Shown here piece by piece: positions 5,156 to 15,099 of a stretch of 16,985 nt of DNA. Origin of the DNA: Methanobacteriota archaeon (lineage in GTDB: Archaea; Methanobacteriota; Methanobacteria; Methanobacteriales; Methanobacteriaceae); the NCBI GenBank assembly GCA_016874685.1, contig VGTM01000033.1, forward strand, positions 1 to 16,985, in the 5' to 3' direction. The notes beneath the pieces were generated by a model. It did no database searches. It was not told the DNA's origin and saw nothing but the letters and a program-made list of their open reading frames with translations. Position numbers and translations under genes: made by a program. The stretch's first letter is position 1, and every line of letters starts with the position of its first letter.

Positions 5156-5737
5156 ATGGATAATATCGAAATTAGAAGAAAAATCTTAGAAAAATTGTAT
5201 GATACTGAAAAGATAAATCCTGGAAACATAATATCAAGTATTGACCTTGGTAACGAATTAAATATTTCTAATGAAGATTTAGGATTTAATATTAAATATT
5301 TAAAGGAAAAACAGTTTATTAATGCCGAGCAAATGGCTACTCCATTCTATTCCGCTCTTTTAAGCATTGCTCCCTATGGTATCGATATAGTTGAAGATGA
5401 AAATGAATTTAATAGAAGTTTTCCTTTAATGAATATAACAAATATTCGCAATAGTAAAGGCGTGGTAATAAATTCCGATAACGTTAAGATTGATATCAGT
5501 GAAAATATCAACATAAAAGACAGTTTTAATGAAATATATAATGAAATTGATAATCATATTAATGCAAAAGAAGTTGAACAACGAATTAAAGCAATTGAAG
5601 AAGAATTAAGCAAGGATAAAATTAGTACATCTAAAATAAAAGAATCCACAAACTGGCTTCATAAAAATGCTAATTGGACTATACTTCCATTAATTCAGAT
5701 TTTTCTTAGTTTATATGGGCTCACTTTACCTCGTTAA
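5156..5737 (+). CDS. Hypothetical protein: N-terminal winged-helix-like segment, C-terminal transmembrane anchor
   Basis: ORF of 193 aa with ATG 5156. The N-terminus IRRKILEKLYD...SSIDLGNELNISNEDLGFNIKYLKEKQFI has a wHTH-like pattern. The final 25 aa are hydrophobic (WTILPLIQIFLSLYGLTL). Confidence 0.5.
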   Translation: MDNIEIRRKILEKLYDTEKINPGNIISSIDLGNELNISNEDLGFNIKYLKEKQFINAEQMATPFYSALLSIAPYGIDIVEDENEFNRSFPLMNITNIRNSKGVVINSDNVKIDISENINIKDSFNEIYNEIDNHINAKEVEQRIKAIEEELSKDKISTSKIKESTNWLHKNANWTILPLIQIFLSLYGLTLPR

Positions 5738-5814
5738 AAAAAGAGAAATAATTTAAATTATCTTTTATAGGACATTGCTCTGTAAATCTGTTTTACATAG
5801 TTTCTTAAGATTAT

Positions 5815-7359
5815 CTATTCTTTACTTCTTTTTTCTATTCCTTTTTGAACTTCAACAGCTTTCTTTCCAATTTCTTTTATAAAATAATGTATTACTTTCA
5901 TTTGAGTTAAGCTTTCAAAATCAGGTTTAAAGCTCAATAAACAATTAGTGACATGCATTAAAGAAATAGCTGTATTTTGAAGTGGATCTGCAAGACCATA
6001 ATTTGAAGCTCCAATATGCAAAATCTTATTCTGAGAATCATCCATTAATCCCATACTATGAAAGCCTCTGGAACTTCCATGAACATGTGCTGATGATAAT
6101 TTATAAAATGGACGTAACCTATCAAGCCCTATATATCCCTCTAAACCTCTAAAAGACCGATCCAATCCTTTAAAGTTAGGTATCCATCCATTATCTCCAT
6201 AATAATCACTACCATATTTATTACATAGATAATCCTTTCTTTCTTTCAGTTTATCCAAAGTTTCTTTTTTATGTGGAGCATAGCCTAATTTTTCACACTG
6301 TTCTTGATAAATCAAGGCTTCTTTGTATCTCATTATACTTTCATGTTCTAAATATCTTTGAGAAACAATATTATCATTATCTGATAAAAAAATGGAAATC
6401 ACTGCAAGTTCATGTAAACTTCTCCATCTAGCATTAGCACCATTAGGATATCCTGCCTTTAATAATGTGAGAGCTTCATTACTTATTTGCAAAGCCCTAG
6501 CATGAATTCTAATAAGAGTATTAAACTTAATATCTTCTCTAAAACCTTTTTGGGTAACTTTTTTTCTGTGATTATCAACTGAATCCAATGAAACCCTAAT
6601 TAAACACTCTAATAAATCTAAGGGTTCTTCCCAGTCTTTATATAAAATAGACTCAAATTCCTCTCTATATCCTTTCTGTTCAGTTAACATCTCTTTACTG
6701 AGATCTTTAAATGATTTAAAATAAATTTGAGCAAGTCCAGGTATCAATTTGTTAGCAAGACCATTTTTTAATTTATTCATGTCTTTACCAAATGAAAATG
6801 TATTGTTTTTTTTAATATTAGCTGCTATTATTGCTGTCATTATTTTTGAATGTAAATCTCTGTCAGTTCGTCCTGATTTTTTAATTTCTTCTTTTTTTTC
6901 TTTTAGATATTTTTTGCTTCGATTTATATCAATTTCTTTTTCTAATTGCGCAATTAAATTAAGGATTTTTGGAAAATCACTTTGCAATCTTGCCTTAAAA
7001 TTATTGTAATATTCTACATCGATTTTTTTCACTTTTTTTTCATCTTTAACGTGAATAATTGAGTCTACATCTTTTTGGACATCTTCATATTTATTTTTTA
7101 TATTTTCACGCATATCTATTGATAATCCATATTCTTCAAGGTTTTCTGGAGTTAAATTACTAAAAAAATTGTCAATAAATGTAGCATAAAAGAAAGACTC
7201 AAATAATTCAAAAAAATAATTCTGTAGAATTTCTGATTTATCATATTCATTAAGCATCTCAACAAATTGACTAAATAATTCATCCAATTCCGCATAAAAC
7301 TTTTCAGTCATAATACTTAATTTATTAAAATCAATTAATATTTTTCCATTTTCTTCCAT
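5815..7359 (-). CDS. Large hypothetical protein with a K/E-rich coiled-coil-like N-terminal half and a C-terminal region carrying an Rx4H (HEPN-like) motif; possible defense/abortive-infection type protein
   Basis: Long open frame of 514-525 aa. The first ATG is at 7359 (MEENGKIL); the frame opens further at TTG 7392. The motif ALTLLKAGYPNGANARWRSLHELAV matches the HEPN Rx4-6H pattern. The gene has very low GC compared with its neighbours. Confidence 0.55.
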   Translation of the reverse strand: MEENGKILIDFNKLSIMTEKFYAELDELFSQFVEMLNEYDKSEILQNYFFELFESFFYATFIDNFFSNLTPENLEEYGLSIDMRENIKNKYEDVQKDVDSIIHVKDEKKVKKIDVEYYNNFKARLQSDFPKILNLIAQLEKEIDINRSKKYLKEKKEEIKKSGRTDRDLHSKIMTAIIAANIKKNNTFSFGKDMNKLKNGLANKLIPGLAQIYFKSFKDLSKEMLTEQKGYREEFESILYKDWEEPLDLLECLIRVSLDSVDNHRKKVTQKGFREDIKFNTLIRIHARALQISNEALTLLKAGYPNGANARWRSLHELAVISIFLSDNDNIVSQRYLEHESIMRYKEALIYQEQCEKLGYAPHKKETLDKLKERKDYLCNKYGSDYYGDNGWIPNFKGLDRSFRGLEGYIGLDRLRPFYKLSSAHVHGSSRGFHSMGLMDDSQNKILHIGASNYGLADPLQNTAISLMHVTNCLLSFKPDFESLTQMKVIHYFIKEIGKKAVEVQKGIEKRSKE

Positions 7360-7618
7360 CTTTACTTGAAATCTTAGACTGCCGAATACCAACTCTCAAA
7401 GTTTCACCTTTACGTCTGGCCCTTAAAAATTTCCTCTGGGTTTCTTCAATAGCTTCCATTAGGCGCATATATTTTGTTTCAGGCGAAATAACTTTATTGT
7501 ACTTAGAATGGCTATAATCAATATTAAATAAAACGACATTAGATATTTTTAAATATAAATAGGGTATAATTAAACCATATTTAAATTTCATTATTTTAAA
7601 AATTGTTTCACTCCACAA
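7331..7618 (-). CDS. Small ORF (95 aa, TTG start) overlapping the 5' end of the large Rx4H gene; possibly spurious
   Basis: ORF only, with no RBS. The first ATG is internal and the product is basic. Confidence 0.2.
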   Translation of the reverse strand: MWSETIFKIMKFKYGLIIPYLYLKISNVVLFNIDYSHSKYNKVISPETKYMRLMEAIEETQRKFLRARRKGETLRVGIRQSKISSKDGRKWKNIN

Positions 7619-7664: not shown

Positions 7665-7736
<72 letters not shown>

Positions 7737-7780: not shown

Positions 7781-7919
<139 letters not shown>

Positions 7920-7990: not shown

Positions 7991-8611
7991 ATGGAAAAGA
8001 TCAATGATGTCTTCATAATTGAAGGAGTGGGTTTTGATTCTAATGTTTATATCATCCATGACATGATCGTTGATACTGGAACAGGAGAAAACATTCAATA
8101 TATATTAAATTCTGTTAAAAAAGCGGGTCTTAGAGTTGAGGACATATCAATGGTTTTAAATACACACTGTCATTTTGATCATACTGGAGGTAACCCCTAT
8201 TTTCCATCTGCCAAAATAGCCATTCATAAAGACGATGCCTCTGCACTGGAGGAAAGTGACGGTGTTAAAACCCTTGGTTTTATGTTTAAAAGATCATTTG
8301 AACCAATGAAAGTTGATGTTTATTTGAATGAAGGTGATAGAATTGGCAATTTTGAAGTTATTCACACTCCAGGACATACCATGGGTTCTATCTGTCTTTA
8401 TGATGGGGAAATTTTAATATGTGGGGACACAGTTTTTGCAAATGGAGGTTTCGGCAGAGTGGATCTTGGTGGAGACTTAAAAATGATGCAAAAATCTTTA
8501 GAGAGGCTCAGTAAGCTGGATATAGAATATCTTCTCCCTGGACACGGACCATGGGTCAATAATGGATCTCAACACGTAAAATGGGCATATGATCTTTTAA
8601 AAGAATTTTAG
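7991..8611 (+). CDS. MBL-fold metallo-hydrolase
   Basis: HCHFDHTGG (the HxHxDH motif), a later His (HTPGH), and a C-terminal PGHG. A GGTGGA RBS sits 4 nt before ATG 7991, and the frame also opens at GTG 7982. Confidence 0.85.
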   Translation: MEKINDVFIIEGVGFDSNVYIIHDMIVDTGTGENIQYILNSVKKAGLRVEDISMVLNTHCHFDHTGGNPYFPSAKIAIHKDDASALEESDGVKTLGFMFKRSFEPMKVDVYLNEGDRIGNFEVIHTPGHTMGSICLYDGEILICGDTVFANGGFGRVDLGGDLKMMQKSLERLSKLDIEYLLPGHGPWVNNGSQHVKWAYDLLKEF

Positions 8612-8731
8612 AGGAATAAACTGATTCATTTAATCTGCAATTTTTTATTTAAGAATTTAAGGTAAATTTTCAAATAATAGACAAATTTATACAAAATAAT
8701 AATTTTAATGGCTTAAATCCTTAATACTTAA

Positions 8732-8940
8732 ATTTAGGCTCTGTAGAAATCCTCATCAAAAGTTGATGATGAAAGTATAATGCTTTGAAATATTTGTGAT
8801 TATAAGACCATAAAGATGTTTTAGCACTCTGAATGCATAGATAAGCTTTAATAGATATTTTTCCGACCAAAACATCTATAGATCATCTTACTTGATAATA
8901 ACTTATGTACAAATTTGCATGTTTTCTACAGAGCCTAAAT
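8732..8940. mobile_element. MITE-like non-autonomous element, copy A (~209 bp, 18-bp terminal inverted repeats ATTTAGGCTCTGTAGAAA)
   Basis: The left end atttaggctctgtagaaa is the exact reverse complement of the right end tttctacagagcctaaat. It has no coding capacity. It has internal inverted repeats (TCATCAA-aag-TTGATGA, and AGATGTTTT...AAAACATCT). A second, about 97% identical copy is at 12888-13096. Confidence 0.7.
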
Positions 8941-8944
8941 GAAT

Positions 8945-9403
8945 TCAGATCTTTTCAATATACACTGCTTTAATTAATGGTACAACTGTGTTTTTGGGTA
9001 AGTCTTCTTGTGACGTAGATGGGCCGTATTCTCCATAGACCTCTATTTTATCTCCTTCTTTGTAGGGTATTCGTGTTGAGTAGGTTACTAGAATGTATGG
9101 GTTGGGTGATAGTTCAGGGACTTTAAGCTCAATGTCAGTGGTGTTATCAAAGTTTTCTCTTATCTTTAGTATTTCACCTTTCACTTTAACTCTCTGTCCT
9201 AATGATTTATCAGAAATCATAGATACGTTCAGTTCACTGCAAGAAGCTTTATACGCTGAAACATTATCTTCTGAAACAGTGGGTAAACAAATATCACTTC
9301 TCTCCACCTCACCTCCTACAAATCCAAACATTACTATGTAACCTATAAAACCTGCCGCCACTGTTATTAGTAGTACTGCTAGAACTTTACTCAATTTCTC
9401 CAT
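8945..9403 (-). CDS. Small membrane-anchored protein, paralog 1 of 3 (N-terminal TM/signal anchor plus ~120-aa extracytoplasmic domain with OB-fold-like profile)
   Basis: GGAGGAG RBS before ATG 9403. N-terminus MEKLSKVLAVLLITVAAGFIGYIVMF. Conserved core VKVKGEIL...IELKVPELSP.PYILV.YS..IP.KEGD.I.VYG.Y shared with 10374-10856 and 10890-11372. Confidence 0.65.
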   Translation of the reverse strand: MEKLSKVLAVLLITVAAGFIGYIVMFGFVGGEVERSDICLPTVSEDNVSAYKASCSELNVSMISDKSLGQRVKVKGEILKIRENFDNTTDIELKVPELSPNPYILVTYSTRIPYKEGDKIEVYGEYGPSTSQEDLPKNTVVPLIKAVYIEKI

Positions 9404-9443
9404 TATACTCCTCCAATAAATTTATTTGATATGAAAACTTTCT

Positions 9444-10140
9444 TCAGCATTCCAAAGGTCTAGTGAGGGAGCCATTCCAAGACCATTCCCAAACCCAGTC
9501 ATAATGCCATTCTGTCACATAAGCATATACCCAACGAAGAACTCTTCTCAATTCTACTTTACTCGGTTTACCCCTATACCGCTTTGTTACTACATACTCA
9601 CGTACATACATCTGTATCCAAGTCCAGTGCCCCCCATAATGCTGTACTTTCACCCATAATTTGCCCTTAACACTCTGCATTTCTTCATCGGTTAGAGTTC
9701 TGTTATCTGAATGCACCTTAGTTGAATTTATATTTGTTGTGTCAGTTACGGATTCTGACGATGTTGTATTTCCATTGATTTGATTTGTTTGATTATTTGC
9801 TTGATCTGTAGTTCCATTAACTTGTGTTGAATTATTAGGATCATTTATAACCAGTGCATATCCGCTGTAAACCTCAGCAAACTTCTCTCTGCTCATATCA
9901 ATGTTCCCTAGGGAGGGATCTGCCAGTTTAACGCTTTCATTTGTTATTTCTCTTACGACGCTGTAGTGTGGTCCGCCATCGATGGTTACATACACTATGT
10001 TGTTCTTTTTAAGCTCCTCTATTGACAGTTTCATGCCAACCGCATTTAAATCTTTAGCCTTGGCTGCTTCTGCCAATCGTACATTGTTGTCCAGTTTTCA
10101 TCTGTTCCCCCGACATTGGCAAATTTCCGTTATGTTATAT
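9444..10140 (-). pseudogene. 5'-truncated, frameshifted duplicate of the C39-like peptidase gene (retains the region after the catalytic Cys plus the W/Y-rich tail)
   Basis: The ORF 9444-10076 (TTG start) aligns with residues about 190-400 of the 402-aa protein. Nucleotide identity is about 90% over 9895-10010 versus 11950-12070. Upstream in another frame reads GTDENWTTMY (the intact copy has GTDENGTTMYGLVEAAKAK). A 1-nt deletion near 10079 breaks the frame, and the N-terminal signal peptide, linker and CGPAALA catalytic motif are absent. Confidence 0.65.
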
Positions 10141-10373
10141 TGACTTCAAAGTTGTTTAAGACTGTTTTAAGTGCTGCAGGTCTCAAGTTTAAAAAGTTAA
10201 TTGCATACACTTTTTCTATTATCTGAACCCTTATTGTGTCATTTGGATTTTTATGTGCTCTTAGAGATTATAATTTTTACAAAATGTGATTTATCCAATA
10301 ATTATTCCGGAATTACATTTATAAAATCATTAACTTCTTTAAAAAATAAATAAATTATGAAAATGGTTTATTT

Positions 10374-10856
10374 TTATGTTTTTTCTATGTATGCGGCTTT
10401 GATAGCGGATAAATCTTTGTTTGCCAATTCTTGTGATGATTGAGTTCCTACAGGAAATTCATATACTCCATATACTGTTATCATGTCGCCTTCTTTGAAG
10501 GGGATGGTTGCTGAGTAACTGACAAGAATGTGATGGTATGGTGAGAGTTCTGGAACTTTAAGTTCAATGTATGTTCTTGTTTTGTCAAATTGCATATATT
10601 CTTCTTTTTTTTGTATTTGGCCTTTTACTTTGACTTTTTGTCCGTTTAGAGCTTTGAAATCTTTAGATAATTCAGATAGGTTAATTTCGGTGCAGGAATT
10701 TTTATATGATGAAATATTGGCTTCTCCTGTAACAGCGGGTACATAAAAATCGCTTTCCTTACCTTCAAAAGTAAAAGGTATTCCAAATATTACATAAGCA
10801 AAAGCAGCTACTACTATAATTAGTATTACTGCCAGAACTTTACTCAATTTCTCCAT
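10374..10856 (-). CDS. Small membrane-anchored protein, paralog 2 of 3 (OB-fold-like extracytoplasmic domain)
   Basis: GGAGGT RBS 7 nt before ATG 10856. It shares the N-terminus MEKLSKVLAV with paralog 1 and the core EGKESD.Y.PAVTGE.NIS.YKNSCT..NLS...VKVKG.I..KEEY.QFDKTRT.I.LKVP.LSP with paralog 3. Confidence 0.7.
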   Translation of the reverse strand: MEKLSKVLAVILIIVVAAFAYVIFGIPFTFEGKESDFYVPAVTGEANISSYKNSCTEINLSELSKDFKALNGQKVKVKGQIQKKEEYMQFDKTRTYIELKVPELSPYHHILVSYSATIPFKEGDMITVYGVYEFPVGTQSSQELANKDLSAIKAAYIEKT

Positions 10857-10889
10857 TACAAAACCTCCAATAAAAAAATATGATTATTT

Positions 10890-11372
10890 TCACTTCTTTT
10901 CTATGTACCCTGCTTTAATACAGGGAAAAAATTTGTTTGCTATCTCTGGTGGTGCATCAGTTCCTCCTGGGTAATAATATTTTCCATAAACCGTTATCAT
11001 ATCGCCCTGTGTGAATGTAAGTGTCCCAGAGTAACTGACAAGAATGTAAGGGTCGGGTGAAAGTCCTGGGACTTTAAGTACTATAGATGTTCTTGTTTTG
11101 TCAAATTGTACATACTCTTTTTTTTCTAGTATTTCACCTGTCACTTTTACATTTTTATCAATTAATGAAAAAGGATCTTTTGATACTTGAGATAAGTTAA
11201 GTTTAGTGCAGGAATTTTTATATGCTGAAATATTGTCTTCTCCTGTAACAGCAGGTGCATAATAATCGCTCTCCTTACCTTCAAAAGACAGCCCAAAAAT
11301 TTGAATATAACCTATAAAACTTACTGCTGCTATTATTAGTAGTACTACTGAAATTTTTATTTTTTTATTCAT
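10890..11372 (-). CDS. Small membrane-anchored protein, paralog 3 of 3 (OB-fold-like extracytoplasmic domain)
   Basis: GGTGA RBS before ATG 11372. It is 160 aa and shares about 60% identity with paralog 2 over the ectodomain. Confidence 0.7.
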   Translation of the reverse strand: MNKKIKISVVLLIIAAVSFIGYIQIFGLSFEGKESDYYAPAVTGEDNISAYKNSCTKLNLSQVSKDPFSLIDKNVKVTGEILEKKEYVQFDKTRTSIVLKVPGLSPDPYILVSYSGTLTFTQGDMITVYGKYYYPGGTDAPPEIANKFFPCIKAGYIEKK

Positions 11373-11513
11373 TCTATCACCATTTTAATTTAAAAAGTTA
11401 AAAAAAGATATAAACTACTGTTATTTAAGTTTATAACTCTTCAACTAAAGGTATCTGATGTTAGTAGGTAAACCACTATACATATTTCCCCTTGCTAACC
11501 CCTAAAATGGCCA

Positions 11514-12722
11514 TTAACCATAATATGGCCATGGAGGAGTAAAGAATCCAACATAATTCCAAGGCAATGTCCAACACCAAATTCTCACTACATGCCATCC
11601 ATATATTTTCCTATACCATCCCCATTTTTGATACCAACCCTCATGCCTATAAAACAGCCAAGCAGTACTTGATCCTTTAACAGTACCTGCGGGAAATATA
11701 TGTGTGTGTCGTCCATATTTCCACTCATACCAGCTCCAAAACCATCCTTTTACCCATACAGGTATCAAAGCGTGTTTTCCTTTAATATTCTGCATCTCTT
11801 CGTCAATCAGAATTTTACTGTTATCTGCCTGCACATTAGTTGAATTTGTATCTGTTTCATTCTTTGTTTGTTCTGTAGTTCCATTAACTTCTGTTGAATT
11901 ATTAGGATCAGTTATAACCAACGCATTCCCACTATAAGCCGCAGTAAAATCTTCTCTACTCATTTCAATGTTCCCTAGGGAGGGATCTGCCAGTTTAACG
12001 CTTTCATTTGTTACTTCCCTTACCACGCTGTAATGTGGCCCGCCATCGATTGTCACAAACACTATGTTATTGGGTTTAAGATCATCTACTAATAACTTCA
12101 TACCAACACCATTAAAACCTTTTGCTTTTGCTGCTTCAACTAACCCATACATTGTTGTTCCGTTCTCATCTGTTCCGGCTAAAGTTGCTAGTTCTTGTTC
12201 TGTTGTGTTGATTCCCAGGTTATTTAGTACTGTTGCAAGGGCTGCTGGTCCGCAGGTATGATTGGTTGACTGCATCACAATACCCGTTGTGTCTATTTGT
12301 GGAATTGTCTCATTTTCAGCCACCGTTGTATCATTCTCAAGATTAATATTTAAATCCGGGATTTGCACATCTTCTGTAACTTGATCATTCACGACTGGCG
12401 TAGAATTATCATTTGTCGTTGTATCTGGTTCTGTAACTGCATTTGGTGTTTCAATTGCAGTATTTTGCTCTGTAGCTGTGTTTGACATGTCTGCTGTCAT
12501 ATTAGCTACTTCAATATTTGTTTCAGTTTGTCCATCCTCAACCTGCTCAGTTATCTGAGATGCAGCCTCTGCATCAACACCTTTTCCTTTAACATCCATT
12601 GGATCAAGTGTTTGGAAATTGGCGGAAGCTGCAACAGCACATGCTGGTGATAATCCCATGATCAAAGCCACCAGCATGATGGCTGCCACTGTTTTGGTAT
12701 TAACTTTCTTCAATTTTATCAC
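11514..12722 (-). CDS. Secreted C39-like cysteine peptidase domain protein with T/N/E-rich linker and Trp/Tyr-rich C-terminal tail
   Basis: Sec-type signal peptide (MIKLKKVNTKTVAAIMLVALIMGLSPACAVAASA). The low-complexity linker is rich in N-x-T/S sequons. The C39-like catalytic signature is QSTNHTCGPAALATVLNNLG (Cys) with a downstream DGGPHYSVV (His). The last ~85 aa are about 30% W/Y/F. The start is GTG 12722 or TTG 12713, with an AGGGGTGA RBS. Confidence 0.75.
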   Translation of the reverse strand: MIKLKKVNTKTVAAIMLVALIMGLSPACAVAASANFQTLDPMDVKGKGVDAEAASQITEQVEDGQTETNIEVANMTADMSNTATEQNTAIETPNAVTEPDTTTNDNSTPVVNDQVTEDVQIPDLNINLENDTTVAENETIPQIDTTGIVMQSTNHTCGPAALATVLNNLGINTTEQELATLAGTDENGTTMYGLVEAAKAKGFNGVGMKLLVDDLKPNNIVFVTIDGGPHYSVVREVTNESVKLADPSLGNIEMSREDFTAAYSGNALVITDPNNSTEVNGTTEQTKNETDTNSTNVQADNSKILIDEEMQNIKGKHALIPVWVKGWFWSWYEWKYGRHTHIFPAGTVKGSSTAWLFYRHEGWYQKWGWYRKIYGWHVVRIWCWTLPWNYVGFFTPPWPYYG

Positions 12723-12887
12723 CCCTTATGGGTGATATATTTGCTGCAATATAAATATTACTATTATTTATTATTATATTACAAAAGCAATATTGCTCTG
12801 GGAAGACAATATTGTTCTAAAAGCACAAACCATGATTTTATAGTAAGAATTAATTGAAATTAGATAAAATAAAAGATTACTTATCAA

Positions 12888-13096
12888 ATTATGGCTCTGT
12901 AGAAATCCTCATCAAAAGTTGATGATGAAAGTATAATACTTTGAAATATTCGTGATTATAAGACCATAAAGATGTTTTAGCACTCTGAATGCATAGATAA
13001 GCTTTAATAGATATTTTTCCGACCAAAACACCTATAGATCATCTTACTTGATAATAACTTATGTACAAATTTGCATGTTTTCTACAGAGCCTAAAT
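12888..13096. mobile_element. MITE-like non-autonomous element, copy B (same orientation as copy A)
   Basis: ggctctgtagaaa...tttctacagagcctaaat is about 97% identical to 8732-8940, with about 5 substitutions including one that weakens the left TIR (at versus ta). Confidence 0.7.
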
Positions 13097-13140
13097 TTAA
13101 ATATACAGAAAAAAGAGGTAGTTAAGGTATTAATTGGATA

Positions 13141-14097
13141 TTAGGGTACAATCACTGTTAAGTTATTCATGTGCCAAGTGGAACCTAAAAAATCATAATA
13201 AGTTATGTTCCACTGAGGTGAATTGGAAGTGGCGTCAATACAGGTGAAATATGCATCCCACCTGAAGTTTTCAACTTCTGGGAGATTATCTGCAATTTTT
13301 ATCGTGTTTTTGGCTGATTCATAGGAACCATTTTGAACTGTAATAAATTTGAAGGTCCCAATGTCCTGCCTACGATTTTCAATAGCATTGTACTCTAGGG
13401 CATGGTATTGCTGATTTTTAAAATCAGTACCCACAACATTCCAAACAAACATATCAGAAGTTGGATAGGCTGATATTTCAGTGTAGTTTCCATTAAAAGA
13501 TACACTTTCTGTTTGAAGGATAGTGAATTTCTCGTAACCTCTTATACCTCCAAATGAGACTAAGAGAACGATAAAAACTGCCATAGCAACTTTTTTATAT
13601 TTCCAATTTATTTTTAGGTAAATAATGAACAGTACAACCGCACCAACAGCCAACGTGATAGAATCAAGGTAGTAATATATTTCGGCACTGTATCTGGTGA
13701 TTGTGAAGGGATAAAGCAGTGGAATACCTTTGCTGGTCAAAAAATCAAGTACTAAGTGAGTTAAAGCCCCGAAACATGCTATAAAACCTACTGTCATTGC
13801 ATTACTTTTATTAAACTCCAGATTTATATCACGTTTTATAACATAACCAATGGATCTTTTAACTGGTTTTCGAGATAGGATGTAGATAAAAATAAGGGAT
13901 GTAATAAAACCAAGAATAAAAGAATGAGTAATTCCTCGATGGCTGAAGATGAAATATTCAGGGAAGAGTATTCCAATCCACACAATAAGAAAATCAAAAT
14001 CGAGTGAAATACCTCCAAATGCTCCAGCAAGTTTATTTTTACTTTTTAGAATAGTTAAAATGATGTATGGAACTAGAAAATGTGTTATTATATCCAT
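13141..14097 (-). CDS. Membrane-bound metal-dependent hydrolase, YdjM/DUF457-like, with extra C-terminal extracytoplasmic domain
   Basis: The N-terminus MDIITHFLVPYII and the motifs HRGITHS and THLVLDFLT resemble the YdjM family. There are multiple TM segments and a C-terminal ~140-aa polar domain with N-glycosylation sequons. Confidence 0.6.
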   Translation of the reverse strand: MDIITHFLVPYIILTILKSKNKLAGAFGGISLDFDFLIVWIGILFPEYFIFSHRGITHSFILGFITSLIFIYILSRKPVKRSIGYVIKRDINLEFNKSNAMTVGFIACFGALTHLVLDFLTSKGIPLLYPFTITRYSAEIYYYLDSITLAVGAVVLFIIYLKINWKYKKVAMAVFIVLLVSFGGIRGYEKFTILQTESVSFNGNYTEISAYPTSDMFVWNVVGTDFKNQQYHALEYNAIENRRQDIGTFKFITVQNGSYESAKNTIKIADNLPEVENFRWDAYFTCIDATSNSPQWNITYYDFLGSTWHMNNLTVIVP

Positions 14098-14331
14098 TTT
14101 ATTTTTACCTGATTAATTGGTTTTTTTGAGTGTTATAATGTTACCCAAGCATATATTAAATTAATTAATTTTCGGTTTTTTGTAGCTAACTAATGTATCA
14201 TATATTTTTGAATTTTTTTGTATATCAAAATGGATTTTAAATCCAATTGTTGAATAAATGATTTATCTAGTTTTAATGAAAGACAGTTCCATGATTATTA
14301 ATAAATCAAAAAAATAAAAAAATGGAGGGAC

Positions 14332-15099
14332 TTATTTTAGTACCTCTGCTTCTATGAATTCTTTGATGTCTTTGATCGTAGCCATAAACTGGGCAGGGAA
14401 TAATATGGTTGAATTTTTCTCTGCCGCTATCTCAAGGAGCACCTGTAAATTACGTAGTTGAAGTGCCACTGGATGTGCAGCTATTATATCTGCAGCTTCA
14501 CCAAGTTTTGAAGCAGACAGATATTCACCCTCAGCAGCGATTATCTTAGCTCTTTTCTCTCTTTCTGATTCGGCTTGTTTTGCCATTGATCTTCGCATAG
14601 TGTCAGGTAACTTTATGTCTTTGATCTCCACAGCTGTAACCTTTATTCCCCATGGTTCACTGTGTTCATCTATTATTTCTTTGATCTTATCGTTTATTTT
14701 ATTGGTTGAACTTAAAACGTCATCTAAGAGAAATTGTCCAATGACATTTCTTACTGTGGTCTGTGAAATCTGATTAACTGCTCTGTTGTAATTTTCGATT
14801 ATAACCACAGCATTATATGGATCTATCACTTTAAAATAGGCAACAGCAGCCACATCGATTGAAACATTGTCCTGTGTTATAATCTTTTGGGATGGAATAG
14901 GCATGGTAACGATTCTCAACGATACTTTGACCATTCTATCGACCAAGGGTATTATAAGTCGAAGACCTGGATCTCTGACTCCTATAACCTTACCCAGCCG
15001 AAAAACCACTCCTCTTTCATACTGGTTTACTATACGTATGGACAGTCCTAAAACAATCAAAACTATTATGCCCAAAAAAATGAGCGTAAATATATCCAT
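14332..15099 (-). CDS. SPFH/band 7 (stomatin/prohibitin-like) membrane protein
   Basis: N-terminal TM helix, then [16 protein letters not shown]...[12 protein letters not shown] and the classic SPFH core, then a coiled-coil [27 protein letters not shown] 7 nt before ATG 15099. Confidence 0.85.

Follow-up and report, generated by a model that had tools for sequence, protein, structure and literature searches.

Two MITE copies and the genes between them

The window analysed here is the whole 16,985-bp stretch of contig VGTM01000033.1 (assembly GCA_016874685.1), from an archaeon of the Methanobacteriaceae. Between a gene for an MBL-fold hydrolase and a gene of the YdjM family, it carries two direct copies of a 199-bp MITE (miniature inverted-repeat transposable element), which enclose a 3,957-bp gene cassette. 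The outer borders of the pair are formed by two identical 8-nt sequences, and a related species has the same intergenic region with neither MITE nor cassette. We consider it probable that the MITEs are internally deleted derivatives of an insertion sequence (IS) of the IS5 family and that the pair moved the resulting 4,355-bp unit as a composite transposon. The features of the locus are listed below, where TIR stands for terminal inverted repeat, TSD for target-site duplication and ORF for open reading frame.

8729-8736 (no strand): left TSD copy of the unit, TAAATTTA, 8/8 identical to 13092-13099
8737-13091, minus strand: unit made of MITE, 3,957-bp cargo and MITE, 4,355 bp, with an outer TSD; absent from L122, a relative described below
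8737-8935, minus strand: MITE copy A, 199 bp, with perfect 13-bp TIRs at 8737-8749 and 8923-8935
8936-8943 (no strand): inner flank of copy A, TAAATGAA, 6/8 identical to 8729-8736, no TSD partner
8945-9403, minus strand: cargo gene 5, 152-aa protein, hydrophobic segment at the N-terminus, no family match, paralogue of the two 160-aa proteins
9444-10076, minus strand: cargo gene 4, 210-aa N-terminally truncated C39 paralogue, covering only positions 51-132 of the 133 of the Pfam profile
10374-10856, minus strand: cargo gene 3, 160-aa protein, no family match, one unit of a 516-bp tandem duplication
10890-11372, minus strand: cargo gene 2, 160-aa paralogue of gene 3, no family match
11514-12722, minus strand: cargo gene 1, standalone Peptidase_C39 protein, predicted to be secreted or membrane-anchored, 402-aa ORF (387 aa as called on metagenome contig L001)
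12885-12892 (no strand): inner flank of copy B, CAAATTAT, 5/8 identical to 13092-13099, no TSD partner
12893-13091, minus strand: MITE copy B, 199 bp, same orientation as copy A (direct repeat)
13092-13099 (no strand): right TSD copy of the unit, TAAATTTA, 8/8 identical to 8729-8736

The initial annotation of this DNA had recognized two copies, about 97% identical, at 8732-8940 and 12888-13096. These spans are indeed direct copies, with 204 identical positions out of 209. The same annotation described a 209-bp element with perfect 18-bp TIRs, a definition that had to be abandoned because it takes in 5 bp too many at either end. When other members of the family are compared, the true ends prove to be GG...CC, so that the element measures 199 bp and its TIR 13 bp. 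Within these limits, copies A and B are identical at 196 of 199 positions (they differ at 8782, 8795 and 8875 in the coordinates of copy A), and the similarity between them stops exactly at the GG/CC ends. The outer 5 nt on each side correspond to AT-rich flanking or target DNA. In copy A, these flanks are complementary by happenstance, and the 13-bp TIR thereby takes on the appearance of an 18-bp one. The 18-mer ATTTAGGCTCTGTAGAAA, with which both copies were thought to start, opens copy A only; copy B starts with ATTATGGCTCTGTAGAAA (ATTAT, not ATTTA). The window contains the 13-mer GGCTCTGTAGAAA four times and no more, each time at an end of one of the two copies; the chance expectation is 0.33, and none of 200 shuffled sequences reaches this count. 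The view that neither copy is protein-coding holds: no ORF in the 199-bp MITE reaches 60 aa, the longest being 39 aa (from ATG) or 49 aa (from TTG). Likewise, no transposase is present in the window, where tblastn with the family transposases returned a C-terminal remnant only (E at least 0.6).

The cargo is made of an intact C39 peptidase, a truncated C39 copy and three small paralogous proteins predicted to be membrane-anchored. The product of gene 1 matches Pfam PF03412 with 103 bits and shows weak, sub-threshold similarity to the standalone C39 peptidases FilB and FapD. The DNA of gene 4 is 83% identical at the nucleotide level to positions 11850-12137 (288 nt), and both C39 proteins have unusual Trp-rich C-terminal tails. 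The three small proteins belong to no family in Pfam, NCBIfam or PADLOC, and no integrase, transposase, plasmid-gene or defence-system match was obtained within the cargo. On another Lake Tanganyika contig (L131), a 407-aa ORF (8086-9309) that is 78-81% identical in nucleotide sequence to the cargo C39 genes (window positions 9660-10182 and 11860-12305) has a solo copy of the MITE at a distance of about 6.4 kb. This ORF could hint at the lineage from which the cassette was derived.

The MITE family and its IS5-type relatives

The 199-bp MITE belongs to a subfamily of at least 10 distinct copies, found in the window, at four loci of three species-representative genomes and on six metagenome contigs. 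The contigs come from metagenomes scanned without target bias, the left end of the MITE itself serving as the query. The relatives, 76-91% identical, are located in Methanobacterium sp. UBA279 (L007, L033), in an uncultured Methanobacteriaceae metagenome-assembled genome (MAG; L108), in Methanobacterium sp. OMB003 (L056) and on the six contigs. Several solo copies of the subfamily (L126a, L129, L130/L131) are bordered by 8/8 TSDs, namely TATATAAT, AAAAAATG and GATTTAAA, and 7/8 flanks are observed for the copies in L128 and L007. The same rule applies to full-length elements with these termini, in which the DNA outside GG...CC is a direct 8-bp repeat and not an inverted repeat (TCAATTTA, GATATTTT, GAGATTAA and GCCATTAT, for example). 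Perfect 8-bp TSDs border the long elements L019, L030, L031, L032, L049, L051, L054 and L066, and 8/8 flanks were counted in 14 of 37 paired elements, a set biased toward ATTWW targets by the search pattern. Searching related genomes for the TIR, and the flanks of other copies for a consistent TSD, had been suggested in the initial annotation; both searches gave positive answers, with further copies, same-ended elements and 8-bp TSDs. Its core proposal, that the MITE is mobilized in trans by a same-ended IS and did not arise by local duplication, is supported by the TSD-bordered copies in other genomes and metagenomes and by the ~1-kb elements in which this TIR bounds an IS5-family transposase gene.

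We therefore regard the 199-bp repeat as almost certainly a genuine mobile MITE. A local segmental duplication without mobility might be suspected from the presence of two copies only in the window and from their direct orientation. Such an origin is hardly credible, however, given that similarity ceases precisely at the GG/CC boundaries, that related copies with perfect 8-bp TSDs are found at unrelated loci of other genomes and that the same termini bound transposase-encoding IS elements. The degree of conservation is also informative. Between species, the MITE is 89-91% identical, as compared with 64-82% for host genes. For instance, the MITE of L108 and that of the window share 89% identity, whereas genes of the same MAG (L124) are 71-79% identical to those of the window. 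That the MITE is more similar than the genes of the MAG that carries it fits a recently spreading element.

Conservation of the interior between species (89-91%) above that of neighbouring genes (71-82%) could also be put down to selection on a structured non-coding RNA with a function, or on a regulatory module, the TIRs being incidental. In favour of this explanation, a single MITE sequence folds better than shuffled ones (z -3.7 for the plus strand and -5.0 for the minus strand). The fold is, however, dominated by TIR pairing. Moreover, in an alignment of 10 copies, compensatory changes are seen in none of the 51 predicted pairs and covariation contributes an unfavourable term, while Rfam gives no match at the gathering threshold (best sub-threshold E 0.19). 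A conserved RNA structure was rejected on these grounds, and the strongly folded RNA predicted initially thus finds no support from covariation. Concerning the internal inverted repeats on which that prediction was built, the hairpin TCATCA-N5-TGATGA does exist; it is uninformative because it is almost invariant among copies. The second repeat, with arms about 45 nt apart (AGATGTTTT/AAAACATCT, 9 nt), does not extend beyond copy A, the only one in which it is perfect; in the nine further copies of the alignment it is replaced by AAAACACCT or AAAACACTT. Finally, copies lie in unrelated contexts with TSDs, and high identity between species is expected of a recently spreading mobile element. An RNA under selection therefore appears very improbable.

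What kind of IS could have given rise to the MITE? One genome per species was scanned with the 18-mer ATTWWGGCTCTGTAGAAA, yielding at least 119 loci. Among the matches listed, 91 are archaeal, as counted from record titles, and they span Methanosarcinales, Methanomicrobiales, Methanobacteriaceae, Woese-, Micr- and Nanoarchaeota (DPANN), Nitrososphaerales and Promethearchaeota (Asgard). About 28 of the matches listed are bacterial, close to the chance expectation for the ATTWWGGCTCTGTAGAAA pattern. Each match was paired with an inverted core downstream, which delimited elements of two size classes: elements of 943-1,032 bp and many short derivatives of 96-312 bp. The 943-1,032-bp elements have a single ORF encoding a protein of about 300 aa. 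In L054, this protein matches the NCBIfam model NF033579 "IS5 family transposase" with 215.7 bits (cutoff 140) and Pfam DDE_Tnp_1 (PF01609) with 74.8 bits; the Micrarchaeota copy scores 125 bits against NF033579, under the cutoff of 140. RefSeq gives its homologues the name "IS5 family transposase", and one of them is carried by plasmid pMETHO01 of the cultured Methanomethylovorans hollandica. In length, single ORF and 8-bp TSD, the long elements with GGCTCTGTAGAAA termini agree with the ISH1 subgroup (900-1150 bp, direct repeat of 8, 1 ORF; Table 2 of PMC6352166). The parent type thus fits an ISH1-subgroup-like IS by size, TSD length and ORF number. Haloarchaeal IS5-like matches such as ISHvo2 are only about 34% identical. 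As compared with members of the ISH1 subgroup in ISfinder (e.g., ISH1 of Halobacterium or ISTth7 of Thermus), the window MITE is only 199 bp long and encodes no transposase. With the GGCTCTGTAGAAA-ended IS5-family elements, it has in common the termini and the 8-bp TSD, and it keeps putative N- and C-terminal coding remnants.

These remnants are read on the minus strand of the MITE as ...KYFKALYFHHQLL fused to MRISTEP. The KYFKALYFHHQLL part aligns to residues ~20-46 of the transposase, ending in HQLL (Smith-Waterman, P 0.0005-0.0025 against shuffled sequences), and MRISTEP is the TIR-encoded C-terminus in Methanolobus and Methanosarcinaceae copies. This suggests, from sequence comparison, that the MITE may have arisen by internal deletion of an IS5-family IS. 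Default tblastn with the transposase N-termini found no match in the MITE, the remnant being visible only by Smith-Waterman comparison with shuffled sequences, so that the evidence for a deletion origin is suggestive only. In full-length IS relatives (L054, 5181-6187; L043, 3383-4297), the ORF of the transposase extends across the right TIR (...R-N/I-S-T-E-P) to a stop codon located in the flanking or TSD DNA; how the protein ends is therefore set by the insertion site.

The autonomous partner IS that had been expected elsewhere was found in part. Longer elements with the same ends do exist, these being the ~1-kb elements with an IS5-family transposase of about 300 aa, but they were found only in other archaeal lineages, none of them in this genome or at the sampled Methanobacteriaceae loci. 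When all fetched full-length elements were compared by BLAST, the closest autonomous relatives were those of Methanosarcinales and Methanomicrobiales, which have 13-20 nt of the terminus in common with the MITE; none of the fetched elements was a full-length autonomous one sharing the MITE interior. Methanobacteriaceae are absent from the best 120 homologues of a Methanolobus transposase, the TIR-adjacent DNA of five Methanobacteriaceae loci encodes no transposase and the 49-aa remnant peptide used as a query gave no match. Two scans of viral contigs revealed no carriers of the element.

The first 8 nt of the terminus (GGCTCTGT), together with the 8-bp TSD, are superficially IS6-like. The IS6/IS26 family is characterized by termini such as GGCTCTGTTGCAAA in IS6100 and by an 8-bp TSD. 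An IS6/IS26 origin was rejected because the transposases inside GGCTCTGTAGAAA-ended elements match IS5, IS1182 and IS982 models and no IS6 model.

The same 13-bp terminus is also found in other, unrelated MITE families of ~231-233 bp, ~247-253 bp and ~130-132 bp. Their loci are in Methanofollis STE_20 (L022, L028, L034, L093), in Methanoregula (L096, L098, L102) and in Methanosarcinaceae/Methanococcoides (L048, L082, L101, L115). Still another same-terminus family is present in other Methanobacteriaceae MAGs (L100 and L111, one of them labelled RUG14233). Many terminus matches are located at contig ends, which suggests that these repeats break assemblies.

Probable insertion of the 4,355-bp unit

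By the 8-bp rule, each MITE of the window should be considered together with its flanks. Neither copy has a TSD of its own, the two flanks of copy A matching at 6/8 positions and those of copy B at 5/8; it is the outer flanks that pair with each other, as a perfect 8/8 TSD. The probability of an 8/8 match between random 8-mers of the window is about 1e-4, and none of 89 unrelated flank pairs of the subfamily reaches it.

The site without the unit can be seen in L122, a different species that is the closest syntenic relative with this context (about 82% nucleotide identity in neighbouring genes). The gene order LPG-synthase, metallophosphoesterase, Band_7, YdjM and MBL-fold hydrolase is common to L122 and the window. 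In L122, only 186 nt separate the YdjM gene from the MBL-fold gene, and MITE, cassette and TIR core are all absent; a single homologous motif, TAACTTTA, occupies the uninterrupted site. The left flank of the window, one TSD copy and the right flank align collinearly with the intergenic region of L122 across the junction (ATCCTTAATA-CT-TAAATTTA-AATAT in the window versus ATCCTTAATA-TTTT-TAACTTTA-ATATT in L122; P ~0.009). This value was obtained by pairwise alignment of the predicted empty site; a three-way MAFFT alignment of the junction was uninformative in such AT-rich DNA. In another Methanobacteriaceae relative (L124, 5940-9172), PIG-L and zinc-ribbon (DZR) genes lie between the YdjM and MBL-fold genes, and this intergenic position seems to be a hotspot of variable content.

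Taken together, the outer 8/8 TSD, the lack of own TSDs and the empty site of L122 indicate composite transposition as the most likely way in which the 4,355-bp unit was inserted. In such a process, a cognate transposase made elsewhere in the cell would bind two termini and cut at the GG/CC ends, and the DNA would insert where an AT-rich target is cut with an 8-bp stagger. Here, the two termini used by the transposase would most likely have been the outer ones of copies A and B. The whole unit would thereby have moved into the intergenic TAAATTTA between the MBL-fold hydrolase and YdjM-family genes. That the pair was transposed in this way in one step is, in our opinion, reasonably likely.

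Another possibility is that two MITEs inserted independently on either side of a resident cassette and that the pair never moved as a unit. The 199-bp MITE does occur elsewhere in direct pairs about 5 kb apart, in L126 (348-546 and 5741-5940) and in L128 (3-127 and 4914-5112), and every complete copy of these pairs has its own TSD. The pair of L126 flanks ORFs that resemble polyphosphate kinase and exopolyphosphatase (read from the sequence, without a family search). The L126 and L128 pairs look like independent insertions; they may possibly be composite precursors. Copy A of the window, with its 6/8 flanks, could be viewed in the same manner. Nevertheless, the window copies, 98.5% identical and hence recent, lack TSDs of their own, while their outer flanks match at 8/8. 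In addition, L122 has neither MITEs nor cassette, with contiguous flanks and one target motif. Independent insertions are therefore quite improbable.

A scenario of two steps deserves more attention. A solo MITE could have inserted first at TAAATTTA, after which a circle with one MITE and the cassette, be it a plasmid, another replicon or an excised unit, would have been integrated by homologous recombination between MITEs. A "hybrid TSD" comparable to what such a history would leave is known around a large insert bounded by MITEHsal3 copies in Halobacterium salinarum (PMC7002104). Yet a donor MITE with a recent TSD should have produced matching inner flanks, and those of copies A and B match each other at only 5/8 positions. 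Furthermore, the contigs from the same population provide no second context of the unit, no empty site and no solo MITE, since each of them either has the site filled in the same way or ends within the MITE; a solo-MITE variant of the site and a second context of the cassette are thus both missing among them. The cargo, for its part, has no plasmid or integrase genes. Recombination of a circle seems unlikely on balance, if less so than the independent insertions discussed above.

Several observations weigh against the explanation favoured here as a whole. The circle scenario would yield the observed architecture too, that is, direct copies, an outer 8/8 TSD and mismatched inner flanks. The 6/8 match of copy A's own flanks is above typical, at least 6 matches being reached in 7 of 89 unrelated pairs. 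The unit is seen in one genomic context only, which is that of every contig with the cargo proteins, and the empty site belongs to a different species, in a divergent AT-rich intergenic region where the junction alignment has a P of only ~0.009. The ISH1 placement is based on size, TSD length and ORF number rather than phylogeny. Lastly, the window lacks a transposase and the Methanobacteriaceae loci that were sampled yielded no autonomous copy, so that mobilization in trans in this host, as well as the identity of the transposase, is what we infer.

A stronger proposal would be that an active, MITE-only composite transposon moves the secreted C39-peptidase/small-protein cassette between Methanobacteriaceae genomes by means of an IS5/ISH1-type transposase. 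The higher identity of the MITE between species (89-91%) than of host genes (64-82%) would fit such an active vehicle. We consider the chances of this proposal to be about even.

Host, known systems and significance

The window is AT-rich (about 33% GC) and its host is archaeal. Proteins encoded on the flanks are closest to those of Methanobacterium, with 55-58% identity. Near-identical contigs come from Lake Tanganyika metagenomes; apart from a single 15-nt indel, contig L001 is 99.8% identical to the window (8102-14895). The clearest archaeal sign is the second of the following features, recognized by Rfam RF00005 with 41 bits and not called by ARAGORN.

7665-7736: tRNA-Cys
7781-7919: 139-nt intron-containing tRNA match

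Two other regions of the window may be mentioned. A low-GC stretch (about 26-32%) at 5156-7392, with a 193-aa ORF of no family and, on the minus strand at 5815-7392, the gene of a 525-aa DUF5677 protein, is possibly another small accessory island. A PEP-mutase/isocitrate-lyase-like gene (1321-2225) is split into adjacent ORFs, 1321-1827 and 1878-2225, and is called as two genes on an identical metagenome contig as well; a frameshift may have turned it into a pseudogene.

MITEs are known in archaea, in particular in Sulfolobus and haloarchaea, and a 2024 census reported them in 20% of archaeal genomes (PMC10969869, PMC11602168). A 2024 review still lists Methanobacterium thermoautotrophicum as devoid of MITEs (PMC10969869). 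As far as could be checked, the 199-bp IS5/ISH1-type MITE subfamily of Methanobacteriaceae was previously undescribed. Like the MITE of the window, haloarchaeal MITEs (the MITEHsal series, ISH2) are archaeal and assigned to an IS class by common termini; lineage, IS class and the termini themselves differ. MITE pairs that bracket cargo have been described in Acinetobacter, where one such pair flanks class 1 integrons and another, of MITE-297, flanks a 76-kb mer region on pA297-3, each whole behaving as a composite transposon would (PMC6382973). There as here, two non-autonomous MITE copies enclose the cargo. In contrast to the Acinetobacter-type composites, the unit of the window has an archaeal host, is chromosomal, is seen in one context and carries a C39-peptidase cassette instead of resistance genes. 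In H. salinarum 91-R6, MITEHsal3 copies with a hybrid TSD surround a 164-kb insert, for which the authors favoured later integrations targeting the MITE over one-step composite transposition (PMC7002104).

No new transposition mechanism is revealed by this locus, which is a clean example of a known process. The true ends, TSD length and parent IS type are now defined for a terminus common to many archaeal phyla. This aids the annotation of MAGs, whose contigs often break at these repeats, and marks the C39-peptidase cassette as DNA that is accessory and was acquired horizontally. The locus also provides a case of gene-cassette mobility by non-autonomous elements in an uncultured Methanobacteriaceae-like archaeon, a group whose mobile-element biology is poorly described. 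If the composite proves to be active, it would be, as far as the searched literature shows, the first well-documented MITE-bounded cargo transposon with a TSD and an empty site in methanogenic archaea.

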